Position numbers and translations under genes: made by a program. 64,000 nt of DNA from positions 4,265 through 68,264 of the forward strand of contig CBDUNF010000001.1 of the NCBI GenBank assembly GCA_965368515.1, read 5' to 3'. This DNA is from an uncultured bacterium. GTDB lineage: Bacteria > Actinomycetota > Acidimicrobiia > Spongiisociales > UBA5794. This document shows, piece after piece, positions 2,941 to 19,836 of this stretch (the stretch's first letter is position 1; the number at the start of each line of letters is the position of its first letter). Below the pieces are notes generated by a model that was not told the origin of the DNA, made no database searches, and saw only the letters and a list, made by a program, of their open reading frames with translations.

Positions 2941-3044
2941 CGCGGGCACCAGCGCAGTGAGCGGGTGGACTACCGCCGCATGCCTAGAACAACAAGGAAG
3001 CGGCCCCCGATTGGGAGCCGCTTCCTCGTTAGTAGTGGTCGCTT

Positions 3045-4019
3045 CTAGCCCTTCACCGAGCCCGCAGTAATACCTCTCACGAAGAACCTCTGCAGTGCAA
3101 AGAACACGAGTAGAGGCCCGACGGTGATCACAAACGCTCCAGCCGTCAGCAAGTGTTCTCGAGCTCCAAACTCTCCTGCCAGCGATGCCACCACGATCGT
3201 GCCGGGCAGCGCCTCCCTATTGCCCCCGATCATCGTGAGGGCGATCAGGTAGTCGTTCCAGGTCCAGAGGAACTGGAAGATGGCGAACGCAGCCAGCACC
3301 GGAACCGATAACGGGAGAACCAGCCGCCAGAAGACCTTGAAGTGATCGGCGCCGTCGATGGCAGCCGATTCGAACAGGTCTTTCGGCAGGCCTGCGATGT
3401 AGTTGTGCAATAGGAATATCGCGAACGGCATCGCAAAACCGGTGTGGGTTAACCACACCGCCGGTATCTCGCCGGATAAGTCCAAATCCGGGAACAACTG
3501 AACCGTCTTCTCAATGAACGGCAATGTCAGGGCGACACCGTTCGAGTAGGCCGATAGCAGCGGGATCAGCGCCACCTGCGTGGGTACTGCCAACAGAGCC
3601 ACGGTGGCGATGAACAACCACTCCCGGCCCTTGAAGTCGATCCAGGCGAAGGCATACGCGGCAAAAGCTGCGATCGCGATCGGGATGATCGTGGCGACCA
3701 CTGCGATAGCGACTGAGTTGAGCAATGCGTTGCCGAGGCCTGCACCAACGTCGGGGAAGAGCACCTCGCGGTAGTTGTCCAATGTCGGGAAGTCGAACCC
3801 GTTGGCGTTGTCTCTGAAGGCATTCCAGAATCCGCTGCCGCGTTGTGCGTCTCGAGTTCGGAACGAATTCACGAACAAGCTGAAAGTCGGGATCGTCCAT
3901 AGGATGACAAGGATCCAGAGGAACCACGTAGGAATCCCACGGAGGAACCCGTAAATACGCTTCCCCAGGGGACGACGCTGTGTGACGGCGCCGGCGGGTC
4001 GTTGCTTGGTAGTTGTCAT
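3045..4019 (-). CDS. carbohydrate ABC transporter permease (MalG-like)
   Basis: EAA-like loop (ESAAIDGADHFKVFWRLVLPL); multiple TM segments; 4-nt overlap with upstream permease gene. Confidence 0.85.
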   Translation of the reverse strand: MTTTKQRPAGAVTQRRPLGKRIYGFLRGIPTWFLWILVILWTIPTFSLFVNSFRTRDAQRGSGFWNAFRDNANGFDFPTLDNYREVLFPDVGAGLGNALLNSVAIAVVATIIPIAIAAFAAYAFAWIDFKGREWLFIATVALLAVPTQVALIPLLSAYSNGVALTLPFIEKTVQLFPDLDLSGEIPAVWLTHTGFAMPFAIFLLHNYIAGLPKDLFESAAIDGADHFKVFWRLVLPLSVPVLAAFAIFQFLWTWNDYLIALTMIGGNREALPGTIVVASLAGEFGAREHLLTAGAFVITVGPLLVFFALQRFFVRGITAGSVKG

Positions 4020-5920
4020 CCCAGCCTCTCTCTCTGCATCCGTCGAATATTGATCGCCATTACAGGAAGAACAGCGATGAACAGGACGACGGCCACCGCC
4101 GAGCCCATGCCGAAGTCAAGCTGAGTAAAGGCTCGTTCCCACATCTCATTGGCAAGCACCTGGGTATCGAAGTTGCCATTGGTCATGACCTTCGGGATAT
4201 CGAAAACCTTGAGCACCGTGACGACCAGCGTGGTGACCACAACCCCGATCGTGGGATAGATCTGCGGGATCGTCACTCGCCAGAAGGTCTGCGACTCGGT
4301 TGCGCCATCGATGCGTGCTGCCTCCAGGAGATCCTCGGGCACCGCCTTGATGGCGGCTGAGAAGATGACCATGGCGAAACCGGTCTGGATCCAGATGAAC
4401 ACGACCATCATCCAGAAGTTGTTCCACGGAGCTTCCTGGATGAAGAGCACCGGATCTGAGAGCACCCGGATCTCGCCGTCGAATTCGAATAGCTCGAATC
4501 CGCCGATACCGGGTCCGTTGAACTGGTAGATCAACCATCCCAAGCCGGCGACGATGGCCAGGCATCCCGCCACGATGCCGTTAGAGCCTGCCTGCCAGCC
4601 GCGCCAAGCCAGATATCCCAAAGCGGCGATAAACGCCAGCAGCACGATGGTGACGACGAGGCGCGCCGTCCCGGAGTTGCTCCACTCACCGATCATCACC
4701 CAGAGCGAGTTGAGGACGCCGCTCTGCGGATCCTGGGGTGGTCGGGCAACGTAGATCAGACGCCAGATAATCGAGGCGCCGACGAAGCTGATTGCCATCG
4801 GCAGGAAGATCAACGACTTTGCGATGTTCTCTCCCCTGGACCGATCAGCGAGAACAGCCACCGCGAGGCCGAGGGAGACGGCGAACGTGATGACGCTCAA
4901 GATCCACCAGAGGTTGTTGGGAATCGTTCCCCTGATATTGGTAAAGATCGCAAAGAACAACAGCACGACACCGCCGGCCATCAGCGATAGGTTGCCCGGG
5001 TTGACCGAGAAGCCGGCCCCGATCTGCCTACCCGACAGTTTGCCTGCGACGATGCCGAGTATCCCGACCACGACCGCAATCCAGAAGAGAGAGCTGGTAA
5101 GGATGTCGCCCGCCTTATCGAAGTTGATAATGCCGGGATCACTAAACAGCTCTGCATAGTTGGAGAATCCGGTTGGGGATAGGTCGTTCGGGTTCCCGCT
5201 CAAGAAGCTCAACCAGATGGTTCGCCCGAGTGGAATGACCAGAGCGGATCCCACGAACAGGAGCGCCGGGGCCAGGAAGATGTACTTTCTGCTTCCGAGC
5301 GCGATCTCGGCACGTTTCACCCGGGACGGCCGAGGTCGCCATCCCACGGCCAATCCAACCAGGAGGCCGAGGACGATTGCGACCACGATCATTTCGACGC
5401 GGGAACCATCGAGCGTGGCTGCCACCCAGGCACCGAGCAGCCAACCGAATGCCGCTCCGGCTATGAGCGACCGTGTCAGCTTCTCCGGGTCTCTACCTTT
5501 CAGCACCCAGATCAGGAATCCCAAACCGACGCCGATGAGCAGGCCGACGATCACACCGATAGGGTCGATCGAGGGCTTGATCGTTTGGTCGGCGGCGACA
5601 CCAAGGAGCACCCCGAGCGCACCACCTCCGGCTGCACCGACGATCATCCGCTGGGTGCGGTCCTGGATCAGGCTGAGGGCCAGCCCGGTACCGCCGCCAA
5701 TCACTAAAGCGACCAAGGTGACTACAACCGGGGAATCGATCATGCGATTACCCCAGAGCAATAGGAACACCACGCCCGACAGGAGACCTCCCGTGATGGT
5801 GCTGTAGCGCGGGTATTTGTCCTCGGTCAGGTCAAACACCTTGTTGACCCCGATGAAGATCAGGGCGCTCAAGCCTATGGCACCGACGATGCCTAGGACG
5901 GTGACGACAAGTCTGTTCAT
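4016..5920 (-). CDS. carbohydrate ABC transporter permease (MalF-like, extended N-terminal membrane domain)
   Basis: C-terminal EAA motif (EAARIDGATESQTFWRVTIP); about 12+ predicted TM helices; in operon with the substrate-binding protein and MalG-like gene. Confidence 0.8.
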   Translation of the reverse strand: MNRLVVTVLGIVGAIGLSALIFIGVNKVFDLTEDKYPRYSTITGGLLSGVVFLLLWGNRMIDSPVVVTLVALVIGGGTGLALSLIQDRTQRMIVGAAGGGALGVLLGVAADQTIKPSIDPIGVIVGLLIGVGLGFLIWVLKGRDPEKLTRSLIAGAAFGWLLGAWVAATLDGSRVEMIVVAIVLGLLVGLAVGWRPRPSRVKRAEIALGSRKYIFLAPALLFVGSALVIPLGRTIWLSFLSGNPNDLSPTGFSNYAELFSDPGIINFDKAGDILTSSLFWIAVVVGILGIVAGKLSGRQIGAGFSVNPGNLSLMAGGVVLLFFAIFTNIRGTIPNNLWWILSVITFAVSLGLAVAVLADRSRGENIAKSLIFLPMAISFVGASIIWRLIYVARPPQDPQSGVLNSLWVMIGEWSNSGTARLVVTIVLLAFIAALGYLAWRGWQAGSNGIVAGCLAIVAGLGWLIYQFNGPGIGGFELFEFDGEIRVLSDPVLFIQEAPWNNFWMMVVFIWIQTGFAMVIFSAAIKAVPEDLLEAARIDGATESQTFWRVTIPQIYPTIGVVVTTLVVTVLKVFDIPKVMTNGNFDTQVLANEMWERAFTQLDFGMGSAVAVVLFIAVLPVMAINIRRMQRERLG

Positions 5921-5977
5921 GGTTCTCCCTTGTCCGCTCCCGGTTGGTTCAATCTAGTGAACCGATCTTGCTGGCGC

Positions 5978-6017
5978 CGAAAAGACAGAAGCCAGCCCGC
6001 AATGCGGGCTGGCTTCT
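5978..6017 (-). terminator. intrinsic terminator/attenuator hairpin between the substrate-binding protein and permease genes (14-bp perfect stem)
   Basis: AGAAGCCAGCCCGC-AAT-GCGGGCTGGCTTCT, followed on the minus strand by a TCTTTTC tract. Confidence 0.5.
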
Positions 6018-6040
6018 GTGTCTATCACGCTTGAACCGGA

Positions 6041-7450
6041 CTAGTTGGTCGGCCAAGCAGCGTCGATGGCGGTAAATGCATCCTCAACGCTCTTGTCACC
6101 GTTGACTGCGCTGGTGCCTTCAGTCCAGAAGGCTCCTGAACCGACCGCGGCCGGCATCAGGTCCGAGCCATCGAAACGGGCCGGAGCCGCGTTCAACAGG
6201 ATCGAGATGAAGCCGCCCTCGAGCTCGTTCCACAAGCTCAGGTCGACACCGAGGTTCGAAGTCAGGAAGCCAGAGGCGTCGCCGCCCTTGATCTCCCGCT
6301 GCGCCTTCTGACGCTCTTCGGCATACTCGGTGGAACCAAGGTACTCCATCACTGCCCACACCTCGGGGGCGTCACGGAACGCTGCTGCCGAGTTGCCGGC
6401 GGTCAGCGTCGGGGACGAGTCCGTGTCGACGTTCGGGAAGTAGAACGTGCCGATCTGGCCGCCCTCACCAACGGTCGTGCCTTCAGGCAGGAACGCAGCG
6501 AAGAATGAGGCCTGGCGAACCATGGCGCAAGTGCCGTCGACGAGCGGCTGCCCGTGATCAGCGCTGTGTGCCGTAGCTGAGATCGAACCGCCAGCAGCAT
6601 AGGTGTTGCCCGGCGTGTTCCAGATGTCCAGGATCGCGTTGGCCACAGCCGTGACTCGCGGATCCGAGAACTTCAGCTCATTGGAAGTCCACTGGTCGTA
6701 GGCCTCGGGGCCTTCGAGCCGCAGCATCATGTCTTCCATCCAGTCGGTGAAAACCCAACCGGTGGCAGGTCCGGATTCGATACCGATGCACCAAGGGGTT
6801 TGGCTAGCAGCGATCATCTCATTGCTGAGAGTAACGAGCTCATCGAATGTCGTCGGGATCGCATAGCCGCCGTCGGCGAAGACCTGCTGGTTGTACCAGA
6901 CGATCGACTTCAGGTCGGTCTTGACCTGGAAGGCGTAGACATCGTCCTCATACGTGTAGGTCTCGAGCGTGCCCGCCGGCCACTGTGGCCTGACGACAGC
7001 CTCGACAGCATCCGGAATGGGTAGCAGGAAGCCCTGCGCAGCAAAGTCGAGGACCTTGCCGGGCTGCGGGAACATTGCGATATCCGGCGGGTTGCCACCG
7101 GCTGCCTGTGCGTTGATCTGGTCCGAGAAGTCACGAGCACCAGTGTGGGTGATCGTCATCCCGTTCCGCTCGGCAAAGACGTCGAGCGCCCGCTGAATGC
7201 CGGTCGCCTCGTCCGCACCATCCTCAGAAGAGAAGATCGTTACGCTTGTTCCCGCGAGGTCCACCATTGGGGCCTCTGTTGTATCGGGTGCGGCAGTGGT
7301 ATCGGTTCCACCATCGCTTGGCGCGGCCGTCGTTTCGGCCGCCGTTGTGTCTGAGGGTGCCGCCGTTGTGCCTTCATCCGCATCGTCGCCGCACGCAGCA
7401 GCAAAGAGAGCGAAGACAACAAGCAGCAGCAGCCACTTGAATTGCTTCAT
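6041..7450 (-). CDS. sugar ABC transporter substrate-binding lipoprotein
   Basis: Lipoprotein signal LLLVVFALFAAACGDD; Thr/Ala-rich linker; extracellular solute-binding fold; AAGGAGGAGG RBS upstream of ATG at 7450. Confidence 0.85.
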   Translation of the reverse strand: MKQFKWLLLLVVFALFAAACGDDADEGTTAAPSDTTAAETTAAPSDGGTDTTAAPDTTEAPMVDLAGTSVTIFSSEDGADEATGIQRALDVFAERNGMTITHTGARDFSDQINAQAAGGNPPDIAMFPQPGKVLDFAAQGFLLPIPDAVEAVVRPQWPAGTLETYTYEDDVYAFQVKTDLKSIVWYNQQVFADGGYAIPTTFDELVTLSNEMIAASQTPWCIGIESGPATGWVFTDWMEDMMLRLEGPEAYDQWTSNELKFSDPRVTAVANAILDIWNTPGNTYAAGGSISATAHSADHGQPLVDGTCAMVRQASFFAAFLPEGTTVGEGGQIGTFYFPNVDTDSSPTLTAGNSAAAFRDAPEVWAVMEYLGSTEYAEERQKAQREIKGGDASGFLTSNLGVDLSLWNELEGGFISILLNAAPARFDGSDLMPAAVGSGAFWTEGTSAVNGDKSVEDAFTAIDAAWPTN

Positions 7451-7676
7451 GGAGTCCTCCTCCTTGAGCATCGGCCGAGCGCCGATGCAGGGATAACCAT
7501 ACCGACCGCTACCGGTCGCGCAAAGTCACGACGGCCCACTTCTTTCCAAGAATGGAAGCGCATCCACAGTCGGTGGAACTTCGATTGGTTAGGGCCAGGT
7601 AGTAGCCTCGACTGGAGGCGAGTTGGTGCACGCTGTTTCCCCCGAGGACACACACCCGCAAGCCGGGTAGAAAAAC

Positions 7677-7688
7677 GGAACCGGTTCC
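7677..7688. promoter_or_regulatory. perfect 12-bp palindrome GGAACCGGTTCC in the divergent promoter region (candidate operator)
   Basis: Seen directly; ~36 nt upstream of the 7724 start; shares GGAAC/GTTCC half-sites with the TTGGAACGTTCCAA boxes but with different spacing. Confidence 0.3.
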
Positions 7689-7723
7689 ATTGCTATGCTG
7701 GAGCCCAGCCCCGGAGAAGCCAT

Positions 7724-8656
7724 ATGGCCCAAGTAGTCGTATCCGAATTCATGAACGAAGCAGCGGTAGAGCCGCTGCGCGAGAAGTTCACCGTTCTATT
7801 CGACCCGGGATTGGTCGATGACCGCAACCGCCTGTTGGCGGAGCTGAGTGAAGCCGAGGCGATCATCGTTCGCAATCGAACGCAAGTCGATGCTGGCTTG
7901 CTGGCTGCCGCTCCCCGGTTGCGAGCCGTCGGACGGCTTGGTGTTGGTCTCGACAACATCGATCTCCAAGCGTGTGCAGATCGCGGAGTTGTGGTCCACC
8001 CCGCGACCGGTGCCAACGCACTAGCGGTCGCCGAGTATGTAGTTGCCTCACTCCTTATGTTGTTCCGCGGTGCGTACCAGTCGAAGGATCGGATGCTCGA
8101 CGGATCCTGGCCCCGAGCCGACCTTCAAGGTCGGGAAACTGCGGGCAAGTCTCTGGCGCTCGTCGGGCTCGGTGAGATTGCGCGCCTCGTTGCCGTGCGT
8201 GCCTCCGCCCTCGGAATGAACGTTGCCGCCTTCGATCCGTTTATTGCCGATACCGACCCGGTCTGGGATGACATCGATCGCCGCGAGACTGTCGATGCGG
8301 TGCTCGCCGGCGCAGACGCGGTGAGCGTTCACGTTCCGCTCACCGACGAGACCCGACACATACTCAACGCGTCGAGTCTCGGTGTGCTGGCCCCGGGCGC
8401 GGTTGTCGTGAATACCGCTCGTGGGGGCATCGTTGACGATGCTGCCCTCGCAGCCGCGATTCGCGCCGGGAAGATCGCCGGCGCCGCGCTTGATGTGTTC
8501 GAGGTCGAGCCGTTGACCGCTGTGGCCGCAGAGCCGTTTGTTGGACTCGACAACGTCGTGCTGACCCCACACATCGCAGGCCTCACCGCAGAATCGAATT
8601 CGCGAGTTAGCGACGTGACCGTCGCCAATGTGTTAGCAACCCTGACGAGCAAGTAG
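7724..8656 (+). CDS. D-isomer-specific 2-hydroxyacid dehydrogenase (PGDH/GyaR-like)
   Basis: NAD-binding GLGEIAR-like motif and catalytic R/E/H arrangement (NTARGGIVDDAAL...DVFEVEP...TPHIAG). Confidence 0.8.
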   Translation: MAQVVVSEFMNEAAVEPLREKFTVLFDPGLVDDRNRLLAELSEAEAIIVRNRTQVDAGLLAAAPRLRAVGRLGVGLDNIDLQACADRGVVVHPATGANALAVAEYVVASLLMLFRGAYQSKDRMLDGSWPRADLQGRETAGKSLALVGLGEIARLVAVRASALGMNVAAFDPFIADTDPVWDDIDRRETVDAVLAGADAVSVHVPLTDETRHILNASSLGVLAPGAVVVNTARGGIVDDAALAAAIRAGKIAGAALDVFEVEPLTAVAAEPFVGLDNVVLTPHIAGLTAESNSRVSDVTVANVLATLTSK

Positions 8657-8665
8657 GAGAGATAG

Positions 8666-9328
8666 ATGAAGTTCTTCCTCGATAGTGCCATGACCGACGA
8701 GATCGAATATGCCCTCGAGATGTGGGACATCGACGGGGTCACCACCAACCCACGTCACGTTCAGGTTTCCGGCAAACCGTTCATGACCGTCATCGCCGAG
8801 ATCGCCAAGATCTTCGACGGGACCGACAAGCCGATCTCGGTCGAGGTCAATCCTCACTTCGATGATTGGACAGAGATGGTGACGGAAGGCAAGAAGCTCG
8901 CCGCCCTGTCTCCCAACTTCATCATCAAGCTTCCCGCCACCGAGCCCGGATACAAGGCCGTCCACGAACTGGCCAAGGACGGCATCCAGTCGAACCTGAC
9001 TCTCGTATTCTCGGCAGCCCAGGCACTCCAAGCGATGCGCATGGGTGCGGCGTTCGTATCCCCGTTTGTCGGCTGGAAGGAAAGCAACGGCGAAGAGATC
9101 ACTCACTTCATCGACGAGGTGGCCGCGATCCGCAACGTCTTCGGATACGACACGGAGATCATCGTTGCGGCCGCCCGCAACGCCAGGCAGATCACCAACT
9201 CTGCCGTCGTCGGTGCCGACATTGTTACCGCCGGCATGCCGGTGTTCAAGGACAGCTTCGCTCATCCCTACACGGACGTTGGACTCGGCAAGTTCCAGGC
9301 TTTCTGGGACGACACCCCGTACGAGTAG
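8666..9328 (+). CDS. fructose-6-phosphate aldolase / transaldolase family protein (Fsa/TalC-like)
   Basis: MKFFLDSA...GVTTNP N-terminal signature of the Fsa/TalC subfamily; 220 aa. Confidence 0.8.
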   Translation: MKFFLDSAMTDEIEYALEMWDIDGVTTNPRHVQVSGKPFMTVIAEIAKIFDGTDKPISVEVNPHFDDWTEMVTEGKKLAALSPNFIIKLPATEPGYKAVHELAKDGIQSNLTLVFSAAQALQAMRMGAAFVSPFVGWKESNGEEITHFIDEVAAIRNVFGYDTEIIVAAARNARQITNSAVVGADIVTAGMPVFKDSFAHPYTDVGLGKFQAFWDDTPYE

Positions 9329-9332
9329 CACC

Positions 9333-10745
9333 GTGACCTCACCCCGCAAGAGACTCGGTGTCCTCGCCCTCGCCCGGCCTACCTTCGACGTTCCGTACGC
9401 AGAAGAGGTTGCCACCGCCGCAATGGAAACGCTGACGGGTCTCGACGCCGATCTGCTGGGCAACTCCGATCTCTTGTTCGACGCTGAGTCGACCGAGAAG
9501 GCGCTGGAGCAGTTCGTCGGTGTCGAACTCGACGCGTTGTTGTTGCTCCAGGTTTCGTTCACCGACTCGTCGATGACCGAAGCCATCGGGGCCCGTTTCG
9601 ATGCCCCCATTGTCATCTGGTCGTTCCCGGAGGCCCGGGTGGGTGGGCGGCTGCGCCTCAACTCGTTCTGTGGTCTCAACCTGGCTGCCTACGCACTGAT
9701 CAAGTCCGGTAGCGACTTCGACTACGTGCACCGCCTTGCGGACGACGCTGGTGCGATCGATGACATCGTCGCCCTGCTCGCTGGTGACATCAAGCAAGAT
9801 GCAAGTCGGCGGCGCCCCCCTCGATCCGCCTCACCAGCCGCGCAACAGACCGCGACCGCGGTTGCAGCGACGCTGGCGACGACGAGGATCGGTGTCATTG
9901 GTGATCGTCCCGTTGGGTTCGACCCCTGTGGCTACGACCAGGAGACATTGGCGGAAGTCACCGGGGTGATGGTCGATCGCAAAGAGCTAGAAGACCTGTT
10001 CGGGAGCGCAGCAGCGACGCCGATCGAAATCGTGTCGGCTACGCGGGAACGTGCGGTCGAGCGACTCGGCAATCTCGACGATCTGGACCAGGAAGCTCTC
10101 GACAAGTCGCTCAGCCTCTACGGGGGACTGAAGACGTTGATCGACGCTGGTGGCTGGTCCGGTGTTGCCACCCGGTGTTGGCCGGAGTGCTTCACCGACT
10201 ACGGAGGCGCCGCATGCTCTCCGCAGAGCATGCTCATCGACGATGGCATCCCCGGAACCTGCGAGGCCGATGTATATGGCAACGTGACCGCCCTGCTGCT
10301 GCAGCACACGGCGGGCGAACCATCGTTCGTTGCCGATCTGGTTGAGATGGACACCGACGGGAAGACCGGAGTTCTCTGGCATTGCGGTCTGGCCCCCATG
10401 CACATGGCACCCGATGACGGGTCTGCGGTTGGGACTATTCACTCCAACCGGAAGCTGCCGCTGCTCAACGAGTTTGCGCTCCGCCCCGGTCGGGTCACGC
10501 TATGCCGTCTGAGCCAGGCGGGTGGGGTTCATTCCCTGGTCATCGGCGGCGGTACGATGCTCGATGAGCCGCTTGCATTCTCTGGCACCGCTGGTGTCGT
10601 CGAATTCGACCGGTCGGCATCCGAAGTCGTGGCAACCATCGCTAGGGAGGGCCTCGAGCATCATTTCGGAATTGTGTACGGCGACTATCGCGAAGAATTA
10701 GAAGCCCTAGCTGCAGGCTGGGGCATCCCCGTTATCGATCTCTAG
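9333..10745 (+). CDS. L-arabinose isomerase / L-fucose isomerase family sugar isomerase
   Basis: Conserved metal-site blocks matching AraA (GTCEADVYGNVTALL ~ GEGDWKTAALL; VADLVEMD...GVLWHCGLAPMHMA ~ MEDYTYHF...GSHMLE); GTG start 5 nt after the Fsa gene stop. Confidence 0.6.
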   Translation: MTSPRKRLGVLALARPTFDVPYAEEVATAAMETLTGLDADLLGNSDLLFDAESTEKALEQFVGVELDALLLLQVSFTDSSMTEAIGARFDAPIVIWSFPEARVGGRLRLNSFCGLNLAAYALIKSGSDFDYVHRLADDAGAIDDIVALLAGDIKQDASRRRPPRSASPAAQQTATAVAATLATTRIGVIGDRPVGFDPCGYDQETLAEVTGVMVDRKELEDLFGSAAATPIEIVSATRERAVERLGNLDDLDQEALDKSLSLYGGLKTLIDAGGWSGVATRCWPECFTDYGGAACSPQSMLIDDGIPGTCEADVYGNVTALLLQHTAGEPSFVADLVEMDTDGKTGVLWHCGLAPMHMAPDDGSAVGTIHSNRKLPLLNEFALRPGRVTLCRLSQAGGVHSLVIGGGTMLDEPLAFSGTAGVVEFDRSASEVVATIAREGLEHHFGIVYGDYREELEALAAGWGIPVIDL

Positions 10746-10758
10746 AAAGGGACGGAGA

Positions 10759-11778
10759 ATGAGCAAAGTAAAGGTCGGCGTCGCCGGCTACGGAGTAATT
10801 GGGAACCGGCTCGCCGCTGGTGTCGCCATGCAAGAGGACATGGAGCTCGTCGGTGTTGCCGATGTCGCCCCGACCCTTCCCGTTCGTGCGCTCAAAGAGC
10901 GCGGGATGCCCTTCAAGTTGTTCACGGCATACGATGGCGCAGAGGTTGCGCTCGAAGAAGCAGGCATCCCGGTGTCCGGTGGCTTCGATGACTTGCTCGG
11001 CGAAGTCGATGTGATGCTCGACGCCGCTCCCGGTGGCATCGGAGCCAAGAACAAAGAGAAGTACGTGGCTGCGGGCGTCAAAGCGGTCTTCCAGGGCGGC
11101 GAGTCCGGAGAGGTGGCCGATGTTTTCTTCCACGGCACCGTCAACTACGAGAAGGGGCTTGGCGTTGACTACTTGAAGCTGACTTCGTGTAACACCACCG
11201 GCCTCATCCGTGCGGTCGATGCGGTGCACAAGGCTGTCGGTGTAAGCAAGACATTCATCACCATCATCCGCCGTGTTGCCGATCCGGGTGACACCCATCG
11301 TGGTCTCACCAACGTCCTGCAGGTGGAGCCAATCCCAAACCATCAGGCCGTTGACCTCGAGAACATCATGGACGGCGTTGCCGCCACTGGTCTTTTGGTC
11401 CACACCCCTGTCACCCACGGTCACATCATCACCATCTCGGCAACGCCGAAGGAGAAGATTTCCGTCGAAGATGCGATCGCCGCCTTCAAGGCGTATCCCC
11501 GCATCAAGGTCGTCAAGATTGCCGAAGGGTTCGACTCGAACTCATCGCTGTTCCAGTGGGCCCGCTACATGGAGTACCCGCGCGGTGACATGTACGAGAT
11601 CGGTCTCTGGGAGGAGATGGTTGGGCTGTCCGGCGACGATGTGGTGTTCGGCATCAACATCCCGCAGGAGTCGGTGACGATTCCCGAGACCATCGACGCC
11701 ATTCGTGCGTCCATGGAAATGCAGGCGACCGGTGTTGAGGCTGTCGCCTTGACCGACAAGTACCTCGGCATCAAGTAG
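10759..11778 (+). CDS. type II (archaeal-type) glyceraldehyde-3-phosphate dehydrogenase-like NAD(P)-dependent dehydrogenase
   Basis: N-terminal GYGVIGNRL Rossmann motif; active-site LTSCNTTGL, characteristic of archaeal type II GAPDH (type I has SCTTNCL); ~340 aa. Confidence 0.7.
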   Translation: MSKVKVGVAGYGVIGNRLAAGVAMQEDMELVGVADVAPTLPVRALKERGMPFKLFTAYDGAEVALEEAGIPVSGGFDDLLGEVDVMLDAAPGGIGAKNKEKYVAAGVKAVFQGGESGEVADVFFHGTVNYEKGLGVDYLKLTSCNTTGLIRAVDAVHKAVGVSKTFITIIRRVADPGDTHRGLTNVLQVEPIPNHQAVDLENIMDGVAATGLLVHTPVTHGHIITISATPKEKISVEDAIAAFKAYPRIKVVKIAEGFDSNSSLFQWARYMEYPRGDMYEIGLWEEMVGLSGDDVVFGINIPQESVTIPETIDAIRASMEMQATGVEAVALTDKYLGIK

Positions 11779-11790
11779 CAGGAGCGACCA

Positions 11791-12864
11791 GTGACTGAAG
11801 AGATTCGCTACGGCGTGATCGGCACCGGGATGATGGGTTTGGAGCACATCAACAATGTGAACGCCATCGAAGGCGCCCACGTCGTGGCTATCTCCGATCC
11901 GGATCCCCAGTCGCGCAAGTTCGGCAAAAACACAGCACGACTCGACGATGACATGGTCTTCACGGATCACAAGGACCTGTTGGCGGCAGGGGTGTGCGAT
12001 GCGGTGGTTCTCGTATCACCCAACCACACCCACGCCGACATCATGGAGGACATACTCGCCACCGACGTTCATGTGTTGGTGGAGAAACCCCTGGGGACCA
12101 CCGTCGACGAGTGTCGCCGCATTCTCAAGGCTGCGGAAGGGCACAGGGGCATCGTGTGGATGGGGCTCGAGTATCGGTACAAGCCGCCGATCCAGGCTCT
12201 GATCGATGAGGTTCGGTCCGGTGCGGTTGGCAACATCAAGATGGTCGCGATCCGCGAGCATCGCTTCCCGTTCCTCCCCAAGGTGGGAGATTGGAACAGG
12301 TTCAACCGGAACACCGGCGGCACATTGGTGGAGAAGTGCTGCCATTTCTTCGACCTGATGACACTCATTGCCGAGTCCAAGCCGACCCGTGTCTACGCGT
12401 CCGGTGGTCAGGATGTGAATCACCTCGAGGAGCGCTACGACGGCGAAGTCCCCGACATCCTCGACAACGCCTATGTGATGGTGGATTTTGCGAACGGCAT
12501 TCGGGCACTGCTGGACATCTGCATGTTCGCTGAGGGTTCCCGCAACGAACAAGAGCTGGCTGTCACCGGGGATATCGGCAAGGCCGAGTCCTTTGTGCCG
12601 GAGGCGATCATTCGGCTGGGCCGTCGCGCCGAACGCTCGTCCATAGAGCATCCGGTGTCTGATGATCACGTTGCGTTTCATGGACTCCATGAAGGCGCCA
12701 GCTATCTCGAGCACCTCGACTTCATCGATGCCATCCGCAATGACACGCCGCCCAAGGTGACGCTAGAAGACGGGCTGATGGCGGTTGCCGTCGGCCAGGC
12801 CGCCCACCTGTCGATCGAGGAGAGCCGGCCGGTGATGCTGGCCGAGGTCCTCGGCGACTCTTAG
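11791..12864 (+). CDS. Gfo/Idh/MocA family oxidoreductase
   Basis: N-terminal IRYGVIGTGMMG NAD(P)-binding motif; EKPL motif; typical length. Confidence 0.85.
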   Translation: MTEEIRYGVIGTGMMGLEHINNVNAIEGAHVVAISDPDPQSRKFGKNTARLDDDMVFTDHKDLLAAGVCDAVVLVSPNHTHADIMEDILATDVHVLVEKPLGTTVDECRRILKAAEGHRGIVWMGLEYRYKPPIQALIDEVRSGAVGNIKMVAIREHRFPFLPKVGDWNRFNRNTGGTLVEKCCHFFDLMTLIAESKPTRVYASGGQDVNHLEERYDGEVPDILDNAYVMVDFANGIRALLDICMFAEGSRNEQELAVTGDIGKAESFVPEAIIRLGRRAERSSIEHPVSDDHVAFHGLHEGASYLEHLDFIDAIRNDTPPKVTLEDGLMAVAVGQAAHLSIEESRPVMLAEVLGDS

Positions 12865-12894
12865 GAACCAAACAAACCGGGAGTGAGGAAACAA

Positions 12895-13179
12895 ATGAAA
12901 CCGGACATCGTCATCCACGACCCCACCGACTCAGTCGGTGTTGCGGTAGTGGAAGGGATCGAGGCAGGCCAGGAATTGGCCGTCTGGATCATGGACACAA
13001 ATGAGAACACATCGATCGTCTCGAAGGACCCGATCCCGCTCGGGCACAAGATCGCCATGGTCGATCTCGCCGAGGGCGATACGTTGATCAAGTACGGATA
13101 TGACATTGGCAAGGTCGTGGCGTCCACCCCTACGGGTCACCATGTCCATGTTCACAATGTCAAGACAAAGAAGTGGTAG
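12895..13179 (+). CDS. SAF-domain protein (UxaA-family dehydratase small/N-terminal subunit)
   Basis: ~94 aa; SAF-like beta-clip sequence; immediately upstream of, and likely coupled to, the UxaA-family large subunit. Confidence 0.7.
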
Positions 13180-13189
13180 GGGGTCGACG

Positions 13190-14353
13190 ATGACAGCAAC
13201 AATCAAGGCATACCGGCGCGAGAACGGTCGCGTCGGTATTCGCAACCATGTGATCATCCTGCCGGTCGATGACATCTCGAACGCATGCGTGGAGAAGGTC
13301 GCCAACAACATCTGTGGCACCCTCGCATTGCCGCACGCCTACGGTCGCCTCCAATTCGGCGCCGACCTCGAGCTCACCTTTGACACGCTCATCGGTACTG
13401 GCGCCAACCCGAACGTTGCCGCCGCCATCGTCATCGGCATCGAGCCAAAGTGGACCCAGCGCGTCGTCGACGGCATCGCAGCCACTGGCAAGCCCGTCGC
13501 CGGGTTCTCCATCGAGGAACACGGCGATCTCGAGATCGCTGCCGTTGCCGGACGCAAGGCTCAGGAGTTCGTGCAATGGGCGACTGAGTTGCAGCGCGAA
13601 GACGTTCCGCTGAGCGACCTGTGGATCGCCACCAAGTGCGGAGAATCCGACACGACCTCCGGTCTGGCCTCCAACCCGACGGTCGGGAACATGTTCGACA
13701 AGCTCGAACCCCAGGGCAACTATCTGTGCTTTGGCGAGACTTCCGAGTTGACGGGTGCCGAGATGGTCTGCGCCGACCGGGCCGCCACGCCTGAGGTGCG
13801 GCAGAAGTTCCTCGACACGTGGAACCGCTACAACGACATGATCAATCTCCACAAGACGAGTGATCTGTCCGATAGCCAGCCGACGGCAGGCAATATCGCC
13901 GGCGGTCTCACCACCATCGAAGAGAAGGCCTTCGGCAACTTCCAGAAGATCGGCAAGGAGTGCAAGTACATCGACGTTCTCGAGCCGGCGCAAGCGCCGA
14001 CCAAGGGTCCGGGTCTGTACTTCATGGATACATCGTCGGCGGCTGCCGAGTGCAACACGCTTCAGGCCGCAGCCGGTTTTGCGTTGCACATTTTTACCAC
14101 CGGTCAGGGCAACATCATCGGTCATCCGATCATGCCTGTGGTCAAGGTGACGGCCAACCCGAAGACCGCCCGCCTGATGGCCGACCATGTCGATCTCGAC
14201 GTATCCGGTCTGCTCAGCGGTGAAATGGTCCTGGACGAAGCCGGTGATCAGCTCATCGACATGGTGATCCGCACCGCCAACGGTCGGAACACCGCAGCCG
14301 AAACCCTCGGCCATCGTGAGTTCATCTTCACGAAGCTGTATCAGTCGGCCTAA
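13190..14353 (+). CDS. UxaA family hydrolase (altronate/galactarate dehydratase large subunit-like)
   Basis: Sequence typical of the D-galactarate dehydratase/altronate hydrolase C-terminal domain ([17 protein letters not shown]); split arrangement with the preceding SAF gene. Confidence 0.8.
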
Positions 14354-14390
14354 GACAACAAGGAGCGTCCCTCCCCGGCCTTTCGGGCGG

Positions 14391-14416
14391 CTCCCCCTCC
14401 CGAACGGGAGGGGGAG
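14391..14416. terminator. strong GC hairpin (11-bp perfect stem), probable operon terminator
   Basis: CTCCCCCTCCC-GAAC-GGGAGGGGGAG directly after the UxaA gene stop; flanked by further CTCCCC/GGGGAG repeats; no U-tract. Confidence 0.35.
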
Positions 14417-14522
14417 TTACCTCTCCCCACTGGGGACGTGCCGTGCGAAGCAGAGGCGGGGAGGGGGCTGATGAGATCAGCTGCAAGGTCGATTACATCG
14501 AACTCCATGGACAAGGAACATC

Positions 14523-15518
14523 ATGATCCGCACCGCGACGGAATTGGAACAACTCGCAACCAAGGTCTTGGTGAAGGCAGGTACCGCCGAACCGGCGGCT
14601 CGCTCGACGGCGAAGGCACTTGTTCGCGCCAATCGTGACGGACTCAGCTCGCACGGGCTAGCCCGGCTCAAGGCTTACTCGGCGCAGGTCGCGGCCGGCA
14701 AGGTTGCCGGGGCAGCGGTCCCTGAGCTGGAGAAGCTTGGCCCCTCGGCCGCTCGTATCGATGCCAAAGAGGGCTTTGCTTTCCCTGCGTTTGATATGGC
14801 GATCGAGGCTCTGGTCGAGATGACGTCGGAGACACCGGTCGCCGGGATCTCGGTTACCAATTCTCATCACTTCGGTGTCGCCGGTCACCATGTCGAACGC
14901 CTTGCCAAGCACGGGGTCGTTGGCCTTGTCTTTGGTAACTCACCCTCCGCTATTGCACCGTGGGGTGGCTCCCGACCTTTGTTTGGAACCAACCCGATTG
15001 CGTTCGGGTTTCCCCGTGCCGATACCGATCCGGTCGTGGTGGATCTGTCCCTTTCCAAGCAGGCTCGGGGCAAGGTGATGCTCGCTGCTCAGGAGGGCCG
15101 CGACATACCTGAAGGTTGGGCGATCGACTCCGATGGCAACGCGACGACGGATCCCAAGGCGGCTCTCGGCGGTTCGATGTTGCCTCTTGGCGACGCCAAG
15201 GGAGCGGCGTTGGTGTTGGCGGTCGAGATCATGGCTGCCGCGATGACGGGTGCCCACTTCGGATACGAGGCGAGCTCGTTCTTCGACGACAAGGGTGGCC
15301 CGCCCCGGGTCGGCCAATTCATTCTCGGCTTCAATCCAGGTCCGCTGAGCGGTGGTAGCTACGCCGAACGACTCGAAGTGTTGCTGTCCGCCGTCACGGA
15401 CCAGCCGGGGACCCGGCTGCCCGGAGCTCGCCGTGTCCGCGTGCGTATCGAGTCGGCGGCAAACGGGATCGAGATTCCCGATGATCTGTTCCATTGGATG
15501 GAGAGTGCGGTCGGGTAG
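14523..15518 (+). CDS. Ldh family oxidoreductase (malate/L-lactate dehydrogenase family 2)
   Basis: Ldh_2 family conserved blocks (SHGLARL, NSHHFG, GTNPIAFGFP, KGAALVLAVE). Confidence 0.8.
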   Translation: MIRTATELEQLATKVLVKAGTAEPAARSTAKALVRANRDGLSSHGLARLKAYSAQVAAGKVAGAAVPELEKLGPSAARIDAKEGFAFPAFDMAIEALVEMTSETPVAGISVTNSHHFGVAGHHVERLAKHGVVGLVFGNSPSAIAPWGGSRPLFGTNPIAFGFPRADTDPVVVDLSLSKQARGKVMLAAQEGRDIPEGWAIDSDGNATTDPKAALGGSMLPLGDAKGAALVLAVEIMAAAMTGAHFGYEASSFFDDKGGPPRVGQFILGFNPGPLSGGSYAERLEVLLSAVTDQPGTRLPGARRVRVRIESAANGIEIPDDLFHWMESAVG

Positions 15519-15533
15519 CAGCAGACTCCCCAC

Positions 15534-16217
15534 TCAGTTCGTGCCGCGGCGAAGTTCAGGCGTCTGTACCAATAGGTTGAGCCCCGCGGCGATCGCGAGT
15601 CCGATAAATGCGCCGGCGATCACATCAAGCGGATTATGGGCGCCGAGGTAGATGCGGGCCAGGCCGTTGAGCGCAGCTAGCGAGTAAACGATCGCCATGC
15701 CCCGGCGGCCGACATATGGGGCCAGGAGCCCCGCAAGGACAAACGCAAAGATGGCGTGGCCGGACGGGAAGCCGAGCGGTGAGCTGTTGATCTCTCGGAT
15801 TACCGCATCGGGGACCGAAAGGAAGGGCCGCTCTCGTTCAATGAGAGCCTTGACCAGCCACCACTCGATAGCGAACTTGAGCGGAATCGCCAGGCCCAGG
15901 GCAATGCCGAGACGGTACCTGCGGATCGCCAGCGCGGCCAGAGCAGCGAGAGCGACAAAAGCAAGCGAGCCAAAGATCTGGAAAACCCACATCGGAGTCC
16001 TCAAGACGTTCGGCAAGCCGTTCACGGCATCGAACGCGGTCCTCTCGATATCGCTGACGTCGCCGTCGCGGACCACCCACATGCAGACGGCGAGTCCGAG
16101 AATCCCAACGGCCGCCACGGCGTAGTAGCGCCGTCTGTTGCGGGCAAACTGCACGGGTGCGCCCGACCGCAGGTGGGTGAGTGCCATTCCGCGGTGCGGA
16201 GCGTTCATTCTGGACAT
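15534..16217 (-). CDS. PAP2 family phosphatase (phosphatidic acid phosphatase type 2 / undecaprenyl-PP phosphatase-like)
   Basis: PSGH and SRxxxxxHxxxD-type motifs (FPSGHAIFAF...ARIYLGAHNPLDV); membrane protein; GAGGAGGG RBS upstream of the chosen ATG. Confidence 0.75.
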   Translation of the reverse strand: MSRMNAPHRGMALTHLRSGAPVQFARNRRRYYAVAAVGILGLAVCMWVVRDGDVSDIERTAFDAVNGLPNVLRTPMWVFQIFGSLAFVALAALAALAIRRYRLGIALGLAIPLKFAIEWWLVKALIERERPFLSVPDAVIREINSSPLGFPSGHAIFAFVLAGLLAPYVGRRGMAIVYSLAALNGLARIYLGAHNPLDVIAGAFIGLAIAAGLNLLVQTPELRRGTN

Positions 16218-16527: not shown

Positions 16528-17241
16528 TCAGGTAACCAACAGCACGAGCGCACCGGTTATGAGAAGGGTGGTTGTGATGCGATCGAACATGTCGCGGTCG
16601 AGCCTGCCGACCACGGCTCGCCCGATGATGACTCCGACCGGGATCGCAAGCCAGGCGTACCAGGTTGATGCGATCAGATCACCGTCGAACAGGCCCGCCA
16701 GGAAATAGGCCGGCACCTTCAGCATGTTGGTGACCGTGAACAGGGCGGCAGAGGTCGCAACGAATTTCCGGGGAGGTAGGTCGGTTGTCAACAGGTAGGC
16801 GAGCACCGGCGGCCCGCCGAGGTGGGCAACGGCGGAGCTAACGCCTGCGACGAACCCGGCCGGCCAGGCTCGCGTCATTGCGAGATGCGCGGCCACCCGG
16901 GTCTTGGTGATGAGGTAATACGCCGCAAAGATCAACATCGCAATGGCGATGAGGTTGCGCAACGCCGGCTCGCTGATGTTGCCGAGAATGGTGCTGCCCA
17001 GGGCGATCCCCACGACGCTGGCCGCCAGCAGCCGAAGCACGATCGGCGTGACCCACTGTCGCCAGTGAGCGGTGATGGTGAACCAATCGGCGACAATCAG
17101 CATGGGCAGCAACAGCCCGATCGCATCGTCTGCCGGCAAAGACAGCGCAACCAGCACCGTGACAAACGGTGACAGCGTCCCTCCGACGCCAGCCTTGCTG
17201 AAGCCGATCAGAAACGCAGCGATGGCGGTGACTATGAGCAC
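16528..17241 (-). CDS. sulfite exporter TauE/SafE family membrane protein
   Basis: 237 aa; two-fold repeated 4-TM architecture with Gly-rich motifs typical of TauE/SafE. Confidence 0.8.
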   Translation of the reverse strand: MLIVTAIAAFLIGFSKAGVGGTLSPFVTVLVALSLPADDAIGLLLPMLIVADWFTITAHWRQWVTPIVLRLLAASVVGIALGSTILGNISEPALRNLIAIAMLIFAAYYLITKTRVAAHLAMTRAWPAGFVAGVSSAVAHLGGPPVLAYLLTTDLPPRKFVATSAALFTVTNMLKVPAYFLAGLFDGDLIASTWYAWLAIPVGVIIGRAVVGRLDRDMFDRITTTLLITGALVLLVT

Positions 17242-19826: not shown

Positions 19827-19836
19827 CACCGTCTCC

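Follow-up and report, generated by a model that had tools for sequence, protein, structure and literature searches.

Locus organization and conservation

The locus lies within the window (the whole 64-kb stretch of DNA that was analysed, from an Acidimicrobiia bacterium) and comprises an ABC importer on the minus strand and a divergently transcribed plus-strand operon (Table 1). The ORFs, coordinates and domain calls of the original prediction were all recovered as real with Pfam and NCBIfam. The tight packing that it described holds through the suyB-like gene, with intergenic gaps of 9, 4, 13, 12, 30 and 10 bp, but not for the last gene, encoding the Ldh_2 protein, which is set off by a 169-bp, strongly structured spacer (MFE of -85 kcal/mol, z = -4.4) that lacks a U-tail and matched no Rfam family. 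Because of this spacer, co-transcription of comC with the rest of the operon is not assured; judging from gene start positions, the gap seems much shorter in two related loci (L005 and L007).

Table 1 Genes and features of the locus, in window coordinates (SQ, sulfoquinovose)
Feature	Position	Strand	Basis or remark
ABC importer permease (BPD_transp_1)	3045..4019	-	Pfam; candidate SQ/SQ-glycerol uptake
ABC importer permease, 634 aa	4016..5920	-	Pfam
Solute-binding protein (SBP_bac_1), lipoprotein-like N-terminus	6041..7450	-	Pfam; candidate SQ/SQGro binder
SlcC-like D-2-hydroxyacid dehydrogenase	7724..8656	+	PF00389+PF02826
Sulfofructose transaldolase (SftT/SqvA type), TAL_FSA	8666..9328	+	BmSF-TAL homology and residues
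SftI-like sulfoquinovose isomerase, distant member	9333..10745	+	NF048012; weak Fucose_iso_C
Type II (archaeal-type) GAPDH paralog, proposed sulfolactaldehyde dehydrogenase	10759..11778	+	NF003251; role inferred from context
GH188 NAD+-dependent sulfoquinovosidase (SqgA), Gfo/Idh/MocA	11791..12864	+	SqgA structure homology
SuyA-like small subunit, SAF-like, 94-98 aa	12883/12895-13179	+	No Pfam family
SuyB-like large subunit, GD_AH (UxaA-type)	13190..14353	+	PF04295+PF20629
Structured GC-rich spacer with hairpin CTCCCCCTCCCGAACGGGAGGGGGAG	14354..14522	+	
ComC-like Ldh_2 dehydrogenase	14523..15518	+	PF02615
TauE/SafE family exporter, candidate sulfite (or sulfolactate) export	16528..17241	-	Pfam; loosely part of the locus

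The original prediction had proposed comparing the gene order with that of relatives. Over 20 independent Acidimicrobiia loci from genome and metagenome collections show the whole order, so the arrangement is far from chance and the divergent catabolic locus is genuine. The full order slcC-sftT-sftI-gapII-sqgA-suyA-suyB-comC, together with the divergent ABC genes, was found in L001, L003, L005, L007, L012, L014, L090, L093 and L106, and at least 12 further loci show the same order truncated by contig ends. The TauE gene lies directly 3' of comC in L090 and is also present in L003; since it occurs as well in L006, a locus without SQ genes, it may be part of the chromosomal backbone rather than of the SQ locus.

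No regulator gene was found between positions 254 and 19853, as had been noted for the locus. The perfect palindrome reported upstream of the first gene is a real conserved site: GGAACCGGTTCC (7677-7688; extended form AACGGAACCGGTTCCA) lies 35 nt 5' of the ATG at 7724 and stands out as a phylogenetic footprint when orthologous intergenic regions are aligned. Perfect copies number 16 in the 1.94 Mb that were searched, made up of the fetched loci and the window. Of these, 15 stand upstream of slcC-like genes in clusters of this type, and one lies in another sulfofructose transaldolase (SF-TAL) cluster, L108. A second box, GGTAGTAG(C/T)CT (7598..7608), is kept in most of the aligned regions, where its flanking sequence is divergent. 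The palindrome is a candidate operator, and a regulator whose gene lies elsewhere would probably control expression through AACGGAACCGGTTCCA in the 273-bp divergent region.

Proposed import, release and cleavage of sulfoquinovose

According to the original prediction, no described pathway combined these enzymes, and arabinose, fucose, rhamnose and sugar acids were among the candidate substrates. The genes instead fit described modules, namely the sulfo-transaldolase (sulfo-TAL/SFT) branch of sulfoglycolysis, a GH188 sulfoquinovosidase and the SlcC/ComC/SuyAB module, which points to sulfoquinovose, an abundant plant sulfosugar, or its glycerol glycoside as the substrate.

The Gfo/Idh/MocA protein, initially taken for an oxidoreductase, would be a glycosidase: it matched the SqgA structures 8qc3 and 8qc2 (Kaur et al. 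2023) with E-values of 1.5e-102 and 2.7e-100, and it retains the full set of eight residues for catalysis and sulfonate binding, including the R-x3-L-x-K sulfonate triad (K99, Y128, R158, L162, K164, E181, H185 and H300, equivalent to K107, Y136, R166, L170, K172, E189, H193 and H321 of ArSqgA). Given this close homology and the conservation of specificity residues, it is predicted to release SQ. By the same kind of evidence, the gene first read as an Fsa aldolase is assigned as a sulfofructose transaldolase. Its product scored 272 bits against the BmSF-TAL structures 8bc3/8bc4 and at most 152 bits against ordinary transaldolases, is 57% identical to BmSF-TAL and keeps D6, E60, K88, N110 and S132 as well as the W137/A169/R171 sulfonate motif, with a Trp (SPFVGW) in place of the phosphate-binding Arg. 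Rather than delivering glyceraldehyde-3-phosphate (GAP) and a ketose, as had been proposed, such an enzyme would consume GAP as the acceptor of the C1-C3 unit of sulfofructose, yielding fructose-6-phosphate and (S)-sulfolactaldehyde (SLA). Between these two steps, the isomerase, earlier called AraA-like, would convert SQ to sulfofructose, as its family and context suggest. Its sole NCBIfam match was NF048012, the sulfoquinovose isomerase SftI (E-value 4e-79), at 266 bits, below the family cut-off of 700 bits, and a sequence search found no solved homolog.

The divergent ABC system is predicted to import SQ-glycerol or SQ, with its ATPase encoded elsewhere. The solute-binding protein and permeases are common to this cluster and to a second SQ cluster type, the SqgA-containing sulfo-EMP-type clusters L087 and L088. 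The first permease (3045..4019) is 54-57% identical to the one in those clusters and is kept in L003-L014; the solute-binding protein shows 42% identity over 409 aa to theirs, has no close solved relative and showed no similarity to known SQ-binding proteins. In the longer permease, the Pfam match is restricted to residues 350-622, following an N-terminal membrane extension of about 300 aa; a gene call of identical length was found in L086, and most orthologous loci of full length conserve the protein at 70-72%, L005 at 54%.

The distant position of the isomerase, below its family cut-off, and a binding protein unlike known SQ binders would also suit another sulfonated sugar handled by the same chemistry, such as sulfofucose, another 6-deoxy-6-sulfohexose or a glycoside, and SuyAB-coupled sulfofucose pathways exist in the literature. 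We consider this improbable, given that SqgA keeps all the residues contacting the SQ hydroxyls and sulfonate in crystal complexes, including the Glu ligand of the C4-OH, that the transaldolase keeps the sugar-orienting residues of the SQ-pathway enzyme, and that the described sulfofucose route is of the ED type and not of the TAL type. The generic Pfam names (TAL_FSA, Fucose_iso_C, GD_AH, Ldh_2 and Gfo/Idh/MocA) would allow the pathway originally envisaged, a new one whose substrate is a sugar, deoxy-sugar or sugar acid without a sulfonate group; this appears highly improbable in view of the sulfonate-specific residues of the transaldolase (the SPFVGW Trp) and SqgA (R-x3-L-x-K), the SftI match of the isomerase and the four other genes, which reproduce the SlcC/ComC/SuyAB module.

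Proposed desulfonation of sulfolactate

These four genes encode proteins whose Pfam architectures are identical to those of the biochemically validated Chromohalobacter salexigens SlcC, ComC, SuyA and SuyB, the SuyA-like protein and validated SuyA sharing the lack of any Pfam family. NCBIfam scores of the SftI-, SlcC- and ComC-like proteins were all under the equivalog cut-offs. The top match of the SlcC-like protein was phosphoglycerate dehydrogenase, under its cut-off; chemically, (S)-sulfolactate corresponds to D-3-phosphoglycerate as its sulfonate analogue. The ComC-like protein matched L-sulfolactate dehydrogenase best (207 bits, under the cut-off of 500) and, among PDB sequences, is nearer to DpkA and ureidoglycolate dehydrogenases than to Methanocaldococcus jannaschii ComC. 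What had been called a split UxaA dehydratase is best read as the putative sulfo-lyase SuyAB, for which no structure exists for comparison. Its small subunit weakly matched the N-terminus of galactarate dehydratase, and its large subunit is 90-97% conserved across the cluster family.

In the route described in the literature, S-SLA is converted through S-sulfolactate, sulfopyruvate and R-sulfolactate to pyruvate and sulfite, with export by TauE. Family membership and context suggest that here the SlcC-like enzyme would oxidise (S)-sulfolactate to 3-sulfopyruvate and the ComC-like enzyme reduce the latter to (R)-sulfolactate, inverting the stereocentre, after which SuyAB would cleave (R)-sulfolactate into pyruvate and sulfite. 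The nearby TauE protein may export the sulfite.

A type II GAPDH as candidate sulfolactaldehyde dehydrogenase

By their family matches and architectures, all the genes but one fit described SQ modules, the exception being the type II GAPDH, which scored 370 bits with NF003251 (cut-off 185) and 242 bits with the Pyrococcus horikoshii GAPDH, and retains the catalytic C144 and H220. We assign it the oxidation of SLA to (S)-sulfolactate because SLA, a sulfonate, is isosteric with GAP, and consider this role, drawn from context, probable. The original prediction came close in having the GAPDH take the C3 product of the neighbouring enzyme; that product would, however, be sulfolactaldehyde, with GAP being consumed.

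The rival reading keeps the same SQ pathway and makes the GAPDH an ordinary isoenzyme, co-induced to carry the triose-phosphate flux that the transaldolase product fructose-6-phosphate feeds, with the oxidation of SLA left to an unlinked enzyme, for instance an ALDH encoded outside the cluster or the housekeeping GAPDH. The score well over the type II GAPDH cut-off agrees with it. Moreover, the cluster copies are 80-86% identical to gapII genes of related Acidimicrobiia that have pgk directly behind them, and share their active-site motifs; no diagnostic substitution separating the two groups was found, and the sequence itself gives no sign of an altered substrate. Close relatives occur without SQ genes (L006, L008), and members of the subclade to which the cluster copies belong lie beside a different sugar ABC transporter, again without SQ genes (L006/L051). 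No ALDH-family gene was found within the window, nor any other aldehyde-oxidising gene in the operon, but other SQ clusters (L087/L088, L108, L121, L141) also lack an aldehyde oxidiser in range, so that a missing ALDH does not force the assignment.

On the other side, the operon encodes no PFK, aldolase, TPI or PGK with which a solitary GAPDH would form a sensible pathway, whereas it is otherwise short of exactly one step, from SLA to sulfolactate. The gene was found in every cluster instance in which its position was covered. In the gapII tree the cluster copies group as one monophyletic subclade that descends from the pgk-linked genes of Acidimicrobiia, and at least one MAG has a gapII-pgk pair of its own (L045) besides its cluster copy (L012). 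Where SF-TAL loci from other lineages, mostly with SuyAB and/or LarA, bear an aldehyde oxidiser, it is of one of three types that do not overlap: a GAPN-like ALDH (L111, L114, L119, L123, L125), an AFOR (L110, L113, L147) or GAPDH-II with PGK (L116). An Opitutaceae SQ locus (YihQ-equivalog GH31, SuyAB, LarA) likewise bears GAPDH-II-PGK; in other phyla, GAPDH-II has entered SQ loci by independent recruitment (L072, L116). On balance, we regard the ordinary isoenzyme as rather unlikely and favour the sulfolactaldehyde dehydrogenase.

Judged from its sequence, the locus is a tandem cluster that couples sulfolactate desulfonation to the sulfo-TAL branch of sulfoglycolysis. It very probably serves the complete catabolism of SQ or sulfoquinovosyl-glycerol in this Acidimicrobiia bacterium, in which SQ would be broken down fully to fructose-6-phosphate, pyruvate and sulfite. 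The unusual part of the operon is the archaeal-type GAPDH at the place where a sulfolactaldehyde dehydrogenase would be expected.

Layout and conservation of the operon

The original prediction of an undescribed sugar/sugar-acid island was partly supported. An ORF and Pfam check bore out its gene layout and domain content, that is, an ABC importer divergent from a compact plus-strand operon (successive gaps of 9, 4, 13, 12, 30 and 10 bp) whose final Ldh_2 gene is set off by a 169-bp spacer. In line with the lack of a regulator in the locus noted there, no regulator gene occurs between 254 and 19853. Genome-context comparison showed that the gene order is kept across relatives, indicating a real conserved catabolic island. 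The substrate class was wrong, since the genes match sulfosugar (sulfoquinovose, SQ) modules, and the statement that no described pathway has this enzyme combination did not hold, as the modules (sulfo-TAL, GH188 and SlcC/ComC/SuyAB) have each been described already. All functional statements on the locus are computational.

Features of the sulfosugar locus in the window, and of candidate enzymes in homologous loci from genome and metagenome collections (L handles)
Feature	Location	Strand	Basis or remark
ABC permeases, two	3045-4019, 4016-5920	minus	Pfam
Solute-binding protein (SBP)	6041-7450	minus	Pfam
Perfect palindrome GGAACCGGTTCC	7677-7688		35 nt upstream of first start codon
Eight-gene catabolic operon	7724-15518	plus	Pfam families as originally named
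slcC-like	7724-8656	plus	first gene
sftT (sulfofructose transaldolase, SF-TAL)	8666-9328	plus	
sftI-like	9333-10745	plus	
gapII (type II GAPDH, GAPDH-II)	10759-11778	plus	
sqgA	11791-12864	plus	
suyA-like		plus	
suyB-like	13190-14353	plus	
suyB-comC spacer	14354-14522		
comC-like	14523-15518	plus	last gene
LarA-family racemase	L111, L113, L114, L116, L121, L123, L124, L141, L147 (12239-13507), L072 (3743-4993)		
GH4 glycosidase	L114:10699, L116:10669-12087, L121:10669, L123:10698, L124:1086, L125:10705		
AFOR-family aldehyde:ferredoxin oxidoreductase	L110:2521, L113:14781, L147:14570-16516		in aldehyde-oxidiser position
Threonine-synthase-like PLP enzyme	L087:5863-7128, L088:5863-7128, L123:13817-14992, L006:11036-12235		

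Homologous loci were gathered by scanning species-representative genomes with a GAPDH query and metagenome contigs with a transaldolase query, and markers in them were detected by tblastn with coverage thresholds. Many of the compared contigs are truncated, and for some MAGs the taxon label probably reflects a binning error (e.g. L006 "Gemmatimonadales" and L071 "Gammaproteobacteria"). The conserved order, with the ABC genes divergent from slcC-sftT-sftI-gapII-sqgA-suyA-suyB-comC, was complete in nine loci (L001, L003, L005, L007, L012, L014, L090, L093 and L106) and was found interrupted by contig ends in at least 12 more, all of them assigned to Acidimicrobiia or unclassified; the window's own sequence is also present on three further ENA contigs. 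Chance juxtaposition was rejected on the grounds of this synteny in more than 20 loci. One variant (L013:1258-6400) keeps slcC-sftT-sftI-gapII-sqgA and apparently lacks suyAB and comC, with the contig running on for 9 kb; it may excrete sulfolactate or sulfopyruvate. Two further loci (L006:4578-12970 and L051) are syntenic with window 1855-17241 (panB ... TauE) but carry a different island, consisting of LacI, a sugar ABC importer, a 184-aa protein, a GAPDH-II of the same subclade and a ThrC-like enzyme, so that the panB...TauE site appears as a variable island with GAPDH-II as its only constant.

Downstream, a TauE exporter gene (Pfam) lies 1 kb from the operon. The PAP2 gene (15534-16217) was rejected as a cluster member because it is missing from every orthologous locus, and the inositol cluster at 18972-33000 was set aside as a separate unit. 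The latter, an inositol or sugar catabolic cluster, encodes IolB/KduI, two or three Gfo/Idh/MocA dehydrogenases, a xylose-isomerase-like TIM barrel protein, a ribose-type ABC importer, a gluconolactonase, another D-2-hydroxyacid dehydrogenase and an IolD-like TPP enzyme.

The perfect palindrome noted originally near the first gene was confirmed. In its extended form (AACGGAACCGGTTCCA) it is the best-conserved element of an otherwise divergent intergenic region, which holds a second conserved box, GGTAGTAG(C/T)CT. Among the 16 copies of the perfect palindrome in the 1.94 Mb searched, 15 occupy this position and the remaining one belongs to a different SF-TAL cluster. A sigma-70 scan found no promoter, a terminator scan gave nothing convincing and an Rfam search of the window returned no family. 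The GC-rich 169-nt suyB-comC spacer has a very stable predicted fold (-85 kcal/mol, z = -4.4, no U-tail) and holds a perfect 11-bp-stem hairpin, without Rfam match, and judged from gene starts it is apparently much shorter in two of the syntenic loci (L005 and L007).

Predicted genes for sulfoquinovose cleavage and sulfolactate desulfonation

The transaldolase, 57% identical to the B. megaterium enzyme (BmSF-TAL), scored 272 bits against the cryo-EM structure of the latter (8bc3), compared to 152 for the best ordinary transaldolase and at most 73 for Fsa, which marks it as a clear SftT/SqvA ortholog on sequence grounds. It keeps the catalytic D6/E60/K88 and the sugar-orienting N110 and S132, plus W137, A169 and R171; the W-A-R motif of BmSF-TAL presumably corresponds to W138/A170/R172. 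The window enzyme reads SPFVGW where phosphate-binding transaldolases have SPFVGR, a Trp replacing the phosphate-binding Arg. SPFIGW was found in nearly all the SF-TAL homologs of 60-72% identity (L140 and L141 not read), and the ordinary transaldolase of the SQ locus L072 reads SPFVGR. The key residues reported for BmSF-TAL are the catalytic D6/E61/K89, the sugar-orienting N111/S133 and the sulfonate-orienting W-A-R (PMC11659671).

The Gfo/Idh/MocA protein matched the SqgA structures 8qc3 and 8qc2 (E values of 1.5e-102 and 2.7e-100), while the next Gfo/Idh/MocA structure reached 2e-26; 8qc3 and 8qc2 are the NAD+-dependent sulfoquinovosidases ArSqgA and FlSqgA, founders of family GH188 (Kaur 2023). 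Its sulfonate triad is R158, L162 and K164 in EHRFPFLPK (ArSqgA R166/L170/K172), and K99, Y128, E181, H185 and H300, which align with ArSqgA K107, Y136, E189, H193 and H321, show that all five catalytic or hydroxyl-binding residues are kept. The sole NCBIfam match of the isomerase was the SftI model NF048012 (E 4e-79), and since its 266 bits fall under the 700-bit equivalog cut-off, we filed it as a distant SftI relative, not a proven member, with a putative SftI-like function suggested by context; a PDB sequence search found no solved homolog. The ABC components resemble those of a second SQ cluster type (L087/L088), at 42% identity for the SBP and 54-57% for the permeases. That type contains SqgA, an SftI-like protein, an SF-kinase-like PfkB and a LacD/DeoC aldolase, and the resemblance supports the ABC system as a candidate importer of SQ or SQ-glycerol. 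The PDB sequence search with the SBP gave generic sugar binders only. In the longer permease (634 aa) the transporter domain is limited to residues 350-622, and the ~300 conserved residues at the N-terminus resemble additional transmembrane segments.

The four remaining genes have the Pfam architectures of a sulfolactate desulfonation module. The slcC-like gene combines PF00389 and PF02826, matching the validated SlcC of Chromohalobacter salexigens, and the nearest NCBIfam model of its product is PGDH, with a score under the cut-off. A PGDH-like enzyme fits (S)-sulfolactate as substrate, the sulfonate counterpart of D-3-phosphoglycerate. The comC-like gene carries PF02615, as does C. salexigens ComC; its best NCBIfam match was L-sulfolactate dehydrogenase (207 bits, below the cut-off of 500), and in the PDB it scored 215 bits against DpkA vs 142 against M. 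jannaschii ComC. The small lyase subunit is SAF-like without a Pfam family, as in validated SuyA, and the large one has the PF04295 plus PF20629 architecture of C. salexigens SuyB. Pfam architecture and gene context thus make the SAF and GD_AH pair a candidate (2R)-sulfolactate sulfo-lyase, SuyAB: it shares the operon with the slcC-like and comC-like genes, and SuyB homologs were found beside SF-TAL in many other loci. By sequence search, the PDB relatives of the window SuyB were galactarate dehydratase only.

In the pathway that we propose, the ABC system would import SQ-glycerol or SQ, SqgA would release free SQ and the isomerase would convert it into sulfofructose, whose C1-C3 unit SF-TAL would transfer onto GAP to give F6P and (S)-sulfolactaldehyde (SLA). 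After oxidation of SLA to (S)-sulfolactate, SlcC and ComC would invert the stereocentre through sulfopyruvate, SuyAB would release pyruvate and sulfite, and TauE would export the sulfite. The steps downstream of SLA match the literature route.

The type II GAPDH as candidate sulfolactaldehyde dehydrogenase

With 370 bits against an NCBIfam equivalog cut-off of 185, a 242-bit match to the P. horikoshii enzyme and the catalytic C144 (in SCNTT) and H220 in place, the gapII product is, as far as family scores and active-site residues tell, a bona fide type II GAPDH. It shares fold family and catalytic Cys and His with the archaeal enzymes (P. horikoshii 2czc, M. fervidus 1cf2) but falls in a bacterial clade with (N/S)HQA(V)D instead of SHHGPD, which spans Acidimicrobiia, Chloroflexota, Firmicutes, Verrucomicrobiota and others. 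In this clade the phosphoglycerate kinase (PGK) gene, pgk, almost always follows; the window copy is detached from pgk and placed in a sulfosugar operon, and no pgk was found within the 64-kb window. Within the Acidimicrobiia gapII-pgk clade, the cluster copies group together as a monophyletic subclade of shallow depth, and a single MAG has both kinds (cluster copy L012 and pgk-linked copy L045).

We consider it probable, with some reserve, that GAPDH-II acts as the SLA dehydrogenase of the operon, because SLA oxidation is needed and other candidate genes are absent from the operon; tblastn gave no ALDH (PF00171) match in the 64-kb window at E <= 1e-5. This elimination is not watertight, since four other loci have no oxidiser in range and L087/L088 are also without any. 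As the main alternative, the enzyme could be an isoenzyme of ordinary GAPDH type, SLA being oxidised in trans. No residues conserved in the cluster copies yet rare in the pgk-linked ones were found, which argues against neofunctionalisation, and the active-site motifs are identical throughout the bacterial clade, as an ordinary GAPDH would have it; NHQAVD (vs archaeal SHHGPD) was rejected as an SQ signature, the difference being common to the whole clade. We nevertheless regard an ordinary GAPDH as rather unlikely, given that the oxidation step has no alternative gene in the operon, nor any ALDH in the window, and that GAPDH-II(+PGK) alternates with ALDH or AFOR in other SF-TAL/SQ loci. In the other-lineage SF-TAL loci, defined by transaldolases of 60-72% identity (nearly all shown to have the Trp motif), the aldehyde oxidiser was a GAPN-like ALDH in five, an AFOR in three and GAPDH-II plus PGK in one, never co-occurring. 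Since the oxidiser varies without overlap, these GAP-oxidising families seem to be recruited interchangeably for SLA, the sulfonate isostere of GAP. An Opitutaceae locus joins a YihQ-equivalog GH31 (NF007746/PRK10426, which we take to be YihQ), GlpD, SuyAB, LarA and a transaldolase with GAPDH-II-PGK.

If GAPDH-II is the SLA oxidiser, additional ATP becomes possible. The enzyme might be a phosphorylating SLA dehydrogenase yielding 3-sulfolactoyl phosphate, from which a PGK-type kinase, acting here in trans, would make ATP; we put this forward tentatively, as possible rather than probable. A PGK-type kinase is encoded beside GAPDH-II in two SQ loci (L072 and L116) and in two operons (L089 and L032). 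To our knowledge, all described pathways oxidise the sulfonated half of SQ by non-phosphorylating ALDHs, or excrete it; a phosphorylating route, if true, would be a "lower sulfoglycolysis" conserving energy from that half. The L089 operon (5694-11407) runs PfkB kinase, GAPDH-II, PGK, LacD/DeoC-type aldolase and SftI-like isomerase, and kinase, GAPDH-II, PGK and isomerase alone were detected in L032 (9015-13700). They represent either sulfo-EMP whose SLA branch yields ATP, or an EMP operon of archaeal type, source of the lineage's duplicated sulfo-enzymes; the second reading being equally possible, they were set aside as proof of a link between GAPDH/PGK and sulfo-EMP, to which they lend weak support. 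In Ilumatobacteraceae (L081:7033-12298, L019, L029, L030 and L033) a SAF and GD_AH pair, ~60% identical to the window SuyB, lies with LarA divergent beside gapII-pgk, tying a sulfolactate-type lyase and racemase to "housekeeping" gapII-pgk outside SQ clusters.

Related clusters, known pathways and significance

Several other enzymes recur in related clusters. SF-TAL/SQ clusters without SlcC/ComC have a LarA-family nickel-pincer racemase after SuyAB, the L072 copy exceeding the "malate racemase LarAH5" cut-off. Given that sulfolactate is a sulfonate counterpart of malate, LarA is a candidate one-enzyme sulfolactate racemase; nothing relevant was found in the literature on a racemase of this type. 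Six metagenomic clusters, which gave no GH188 match and a GH31 match only in L121 (weak, 27%), have a GH4 (NAD+/metal-dependent) glycosidase gene directly after that of the SF transaldolase. This glycosidase is a candidate third sulfoquinovosidase family, and a search for GH4 sulfoquinovosidases returned no relevant literature. The AFOR of SF-TAL loci is a candidate sulfolactaldehyde:ferredoxin oxidoreductase of anaerobes; two of its three loci (L113 and L147) also have SuyAB and LarA. A threonine-synthase-like PLP enzyme weakly similar to cysteate synthase is recurrent in sulfonate contexts: sulfo-EMP clusters have it adjacent to the SlcC-like gene, in L123 it is flanked by SuyB and LarA, and in L006 it separates GAPDH-II from TauE. 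It is possibly desulfonating or cysteate-related.

The closest described system is the sulfo-TAL (SFT) pathway of Bacillus aryabhattai SOS1 and B. (Priestia) megaterium (SftI/SqvD, SftT/SqvA, SftD/SlaB, SftG and SftE; Frommeyer 2020; Liu 2020; Snow 2023), with GH188 reported in SFT clusters (Kaur et al. 2023). As in the window, an SQ isomerase is followed by an SF transaldolase with GAP as acceptor, yielding F6P and SLA, and a TauE-type exporter is nearby. The window differs in its glycosidase (GH188 SqgA vs GH31 SftG), its uptake (ABC vs MFS), an isomerase only distantly related to Bacillus SftI, the type II GAPDH in the slot of an ALDH-type SLA dehydrogenase (SftD) or SLA reductase, both missing, and sulfolactate that would be desulfonated within the operon instead of excreted. 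The SlcC/ComC/SuyAB module of Chromohalobacter salexigens and Paracoccus pantotrophus, credited in the literature to Denger & Cook 2010, has the same four Pfam architectures and the same expected chemistry, a two-dehydrogenase racemase and then an Fe-dependent sulfo-lyase; the window splits it around the sulfoglycolysis genes of one operon, slcC first and comC last. Paracoccus wurundjeri (mBio 2025, PMC12421959) likewise takes a sulfosugar to SLA, followed by SlcC/ComC-SuyAB and TauE export, and, like the window, has no classical SlaB/GabD SLA dehydrogenase, but its pathway is ED-type, for sulfofucose and proteobacterial, whereas that of the window is TAL-type, for SQ and actinobacterial. Backlund & Higgins 2024 (PMC11465081) flagged actinobacterial GH188 clusters, which L087/L088 resemble, as possible new sulfoglycolytic pathways. 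Those clusters share with the window GH188, a "fucose isomerase", a "D-3-phosphoglycerate dehydrogenase", SuyA/SuyB and an ABC transporter; they are sulfo-EMP-like (SF kinase and SFP aldolase), with an ALDH-type SLA dehydrogenase, a regulator and Tyr at the GH188 L170 position, where the window has SF-TAL, GAPDH-II, no regulator and the canonical Leu.

We found no description in the literature of the TAL-type tandem operon, of its occurrence in Acidimicrobiia or of a type II GAPDH in the position of the SLA dehydrogenase, and nothing relevant on GAPDH or PGK acting on SLA or on SQ in Acidimicrobiia. GAPDH, which two 2026 reviews do not mention, is the only operon gene without a described counterpart in SQ clusters. 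SQ is produced at ~10 billion tonnes a year, and in the accepted picture one organism cleaves it and excretes a C3 sulfonate, which another desulfonates, both halves in one bacterium being termed unusual. The window unites SQ cleavage and desulfonation in a single operon, in Acidimicrobiia, a common environmental group, and would make six of six SQ carbons available to the cell, whereas the classical sulfo-TAL pathway excretes sulfolactate or DHPS. The names under which isomerase and GAPDH were seen in public annotation ("fucose isomerase" and "type II GAPDH") conceal this SQ role, and the locus suggests a testable answer on the identity of the non-classical sulfolactaldehyde dehydrogenases.
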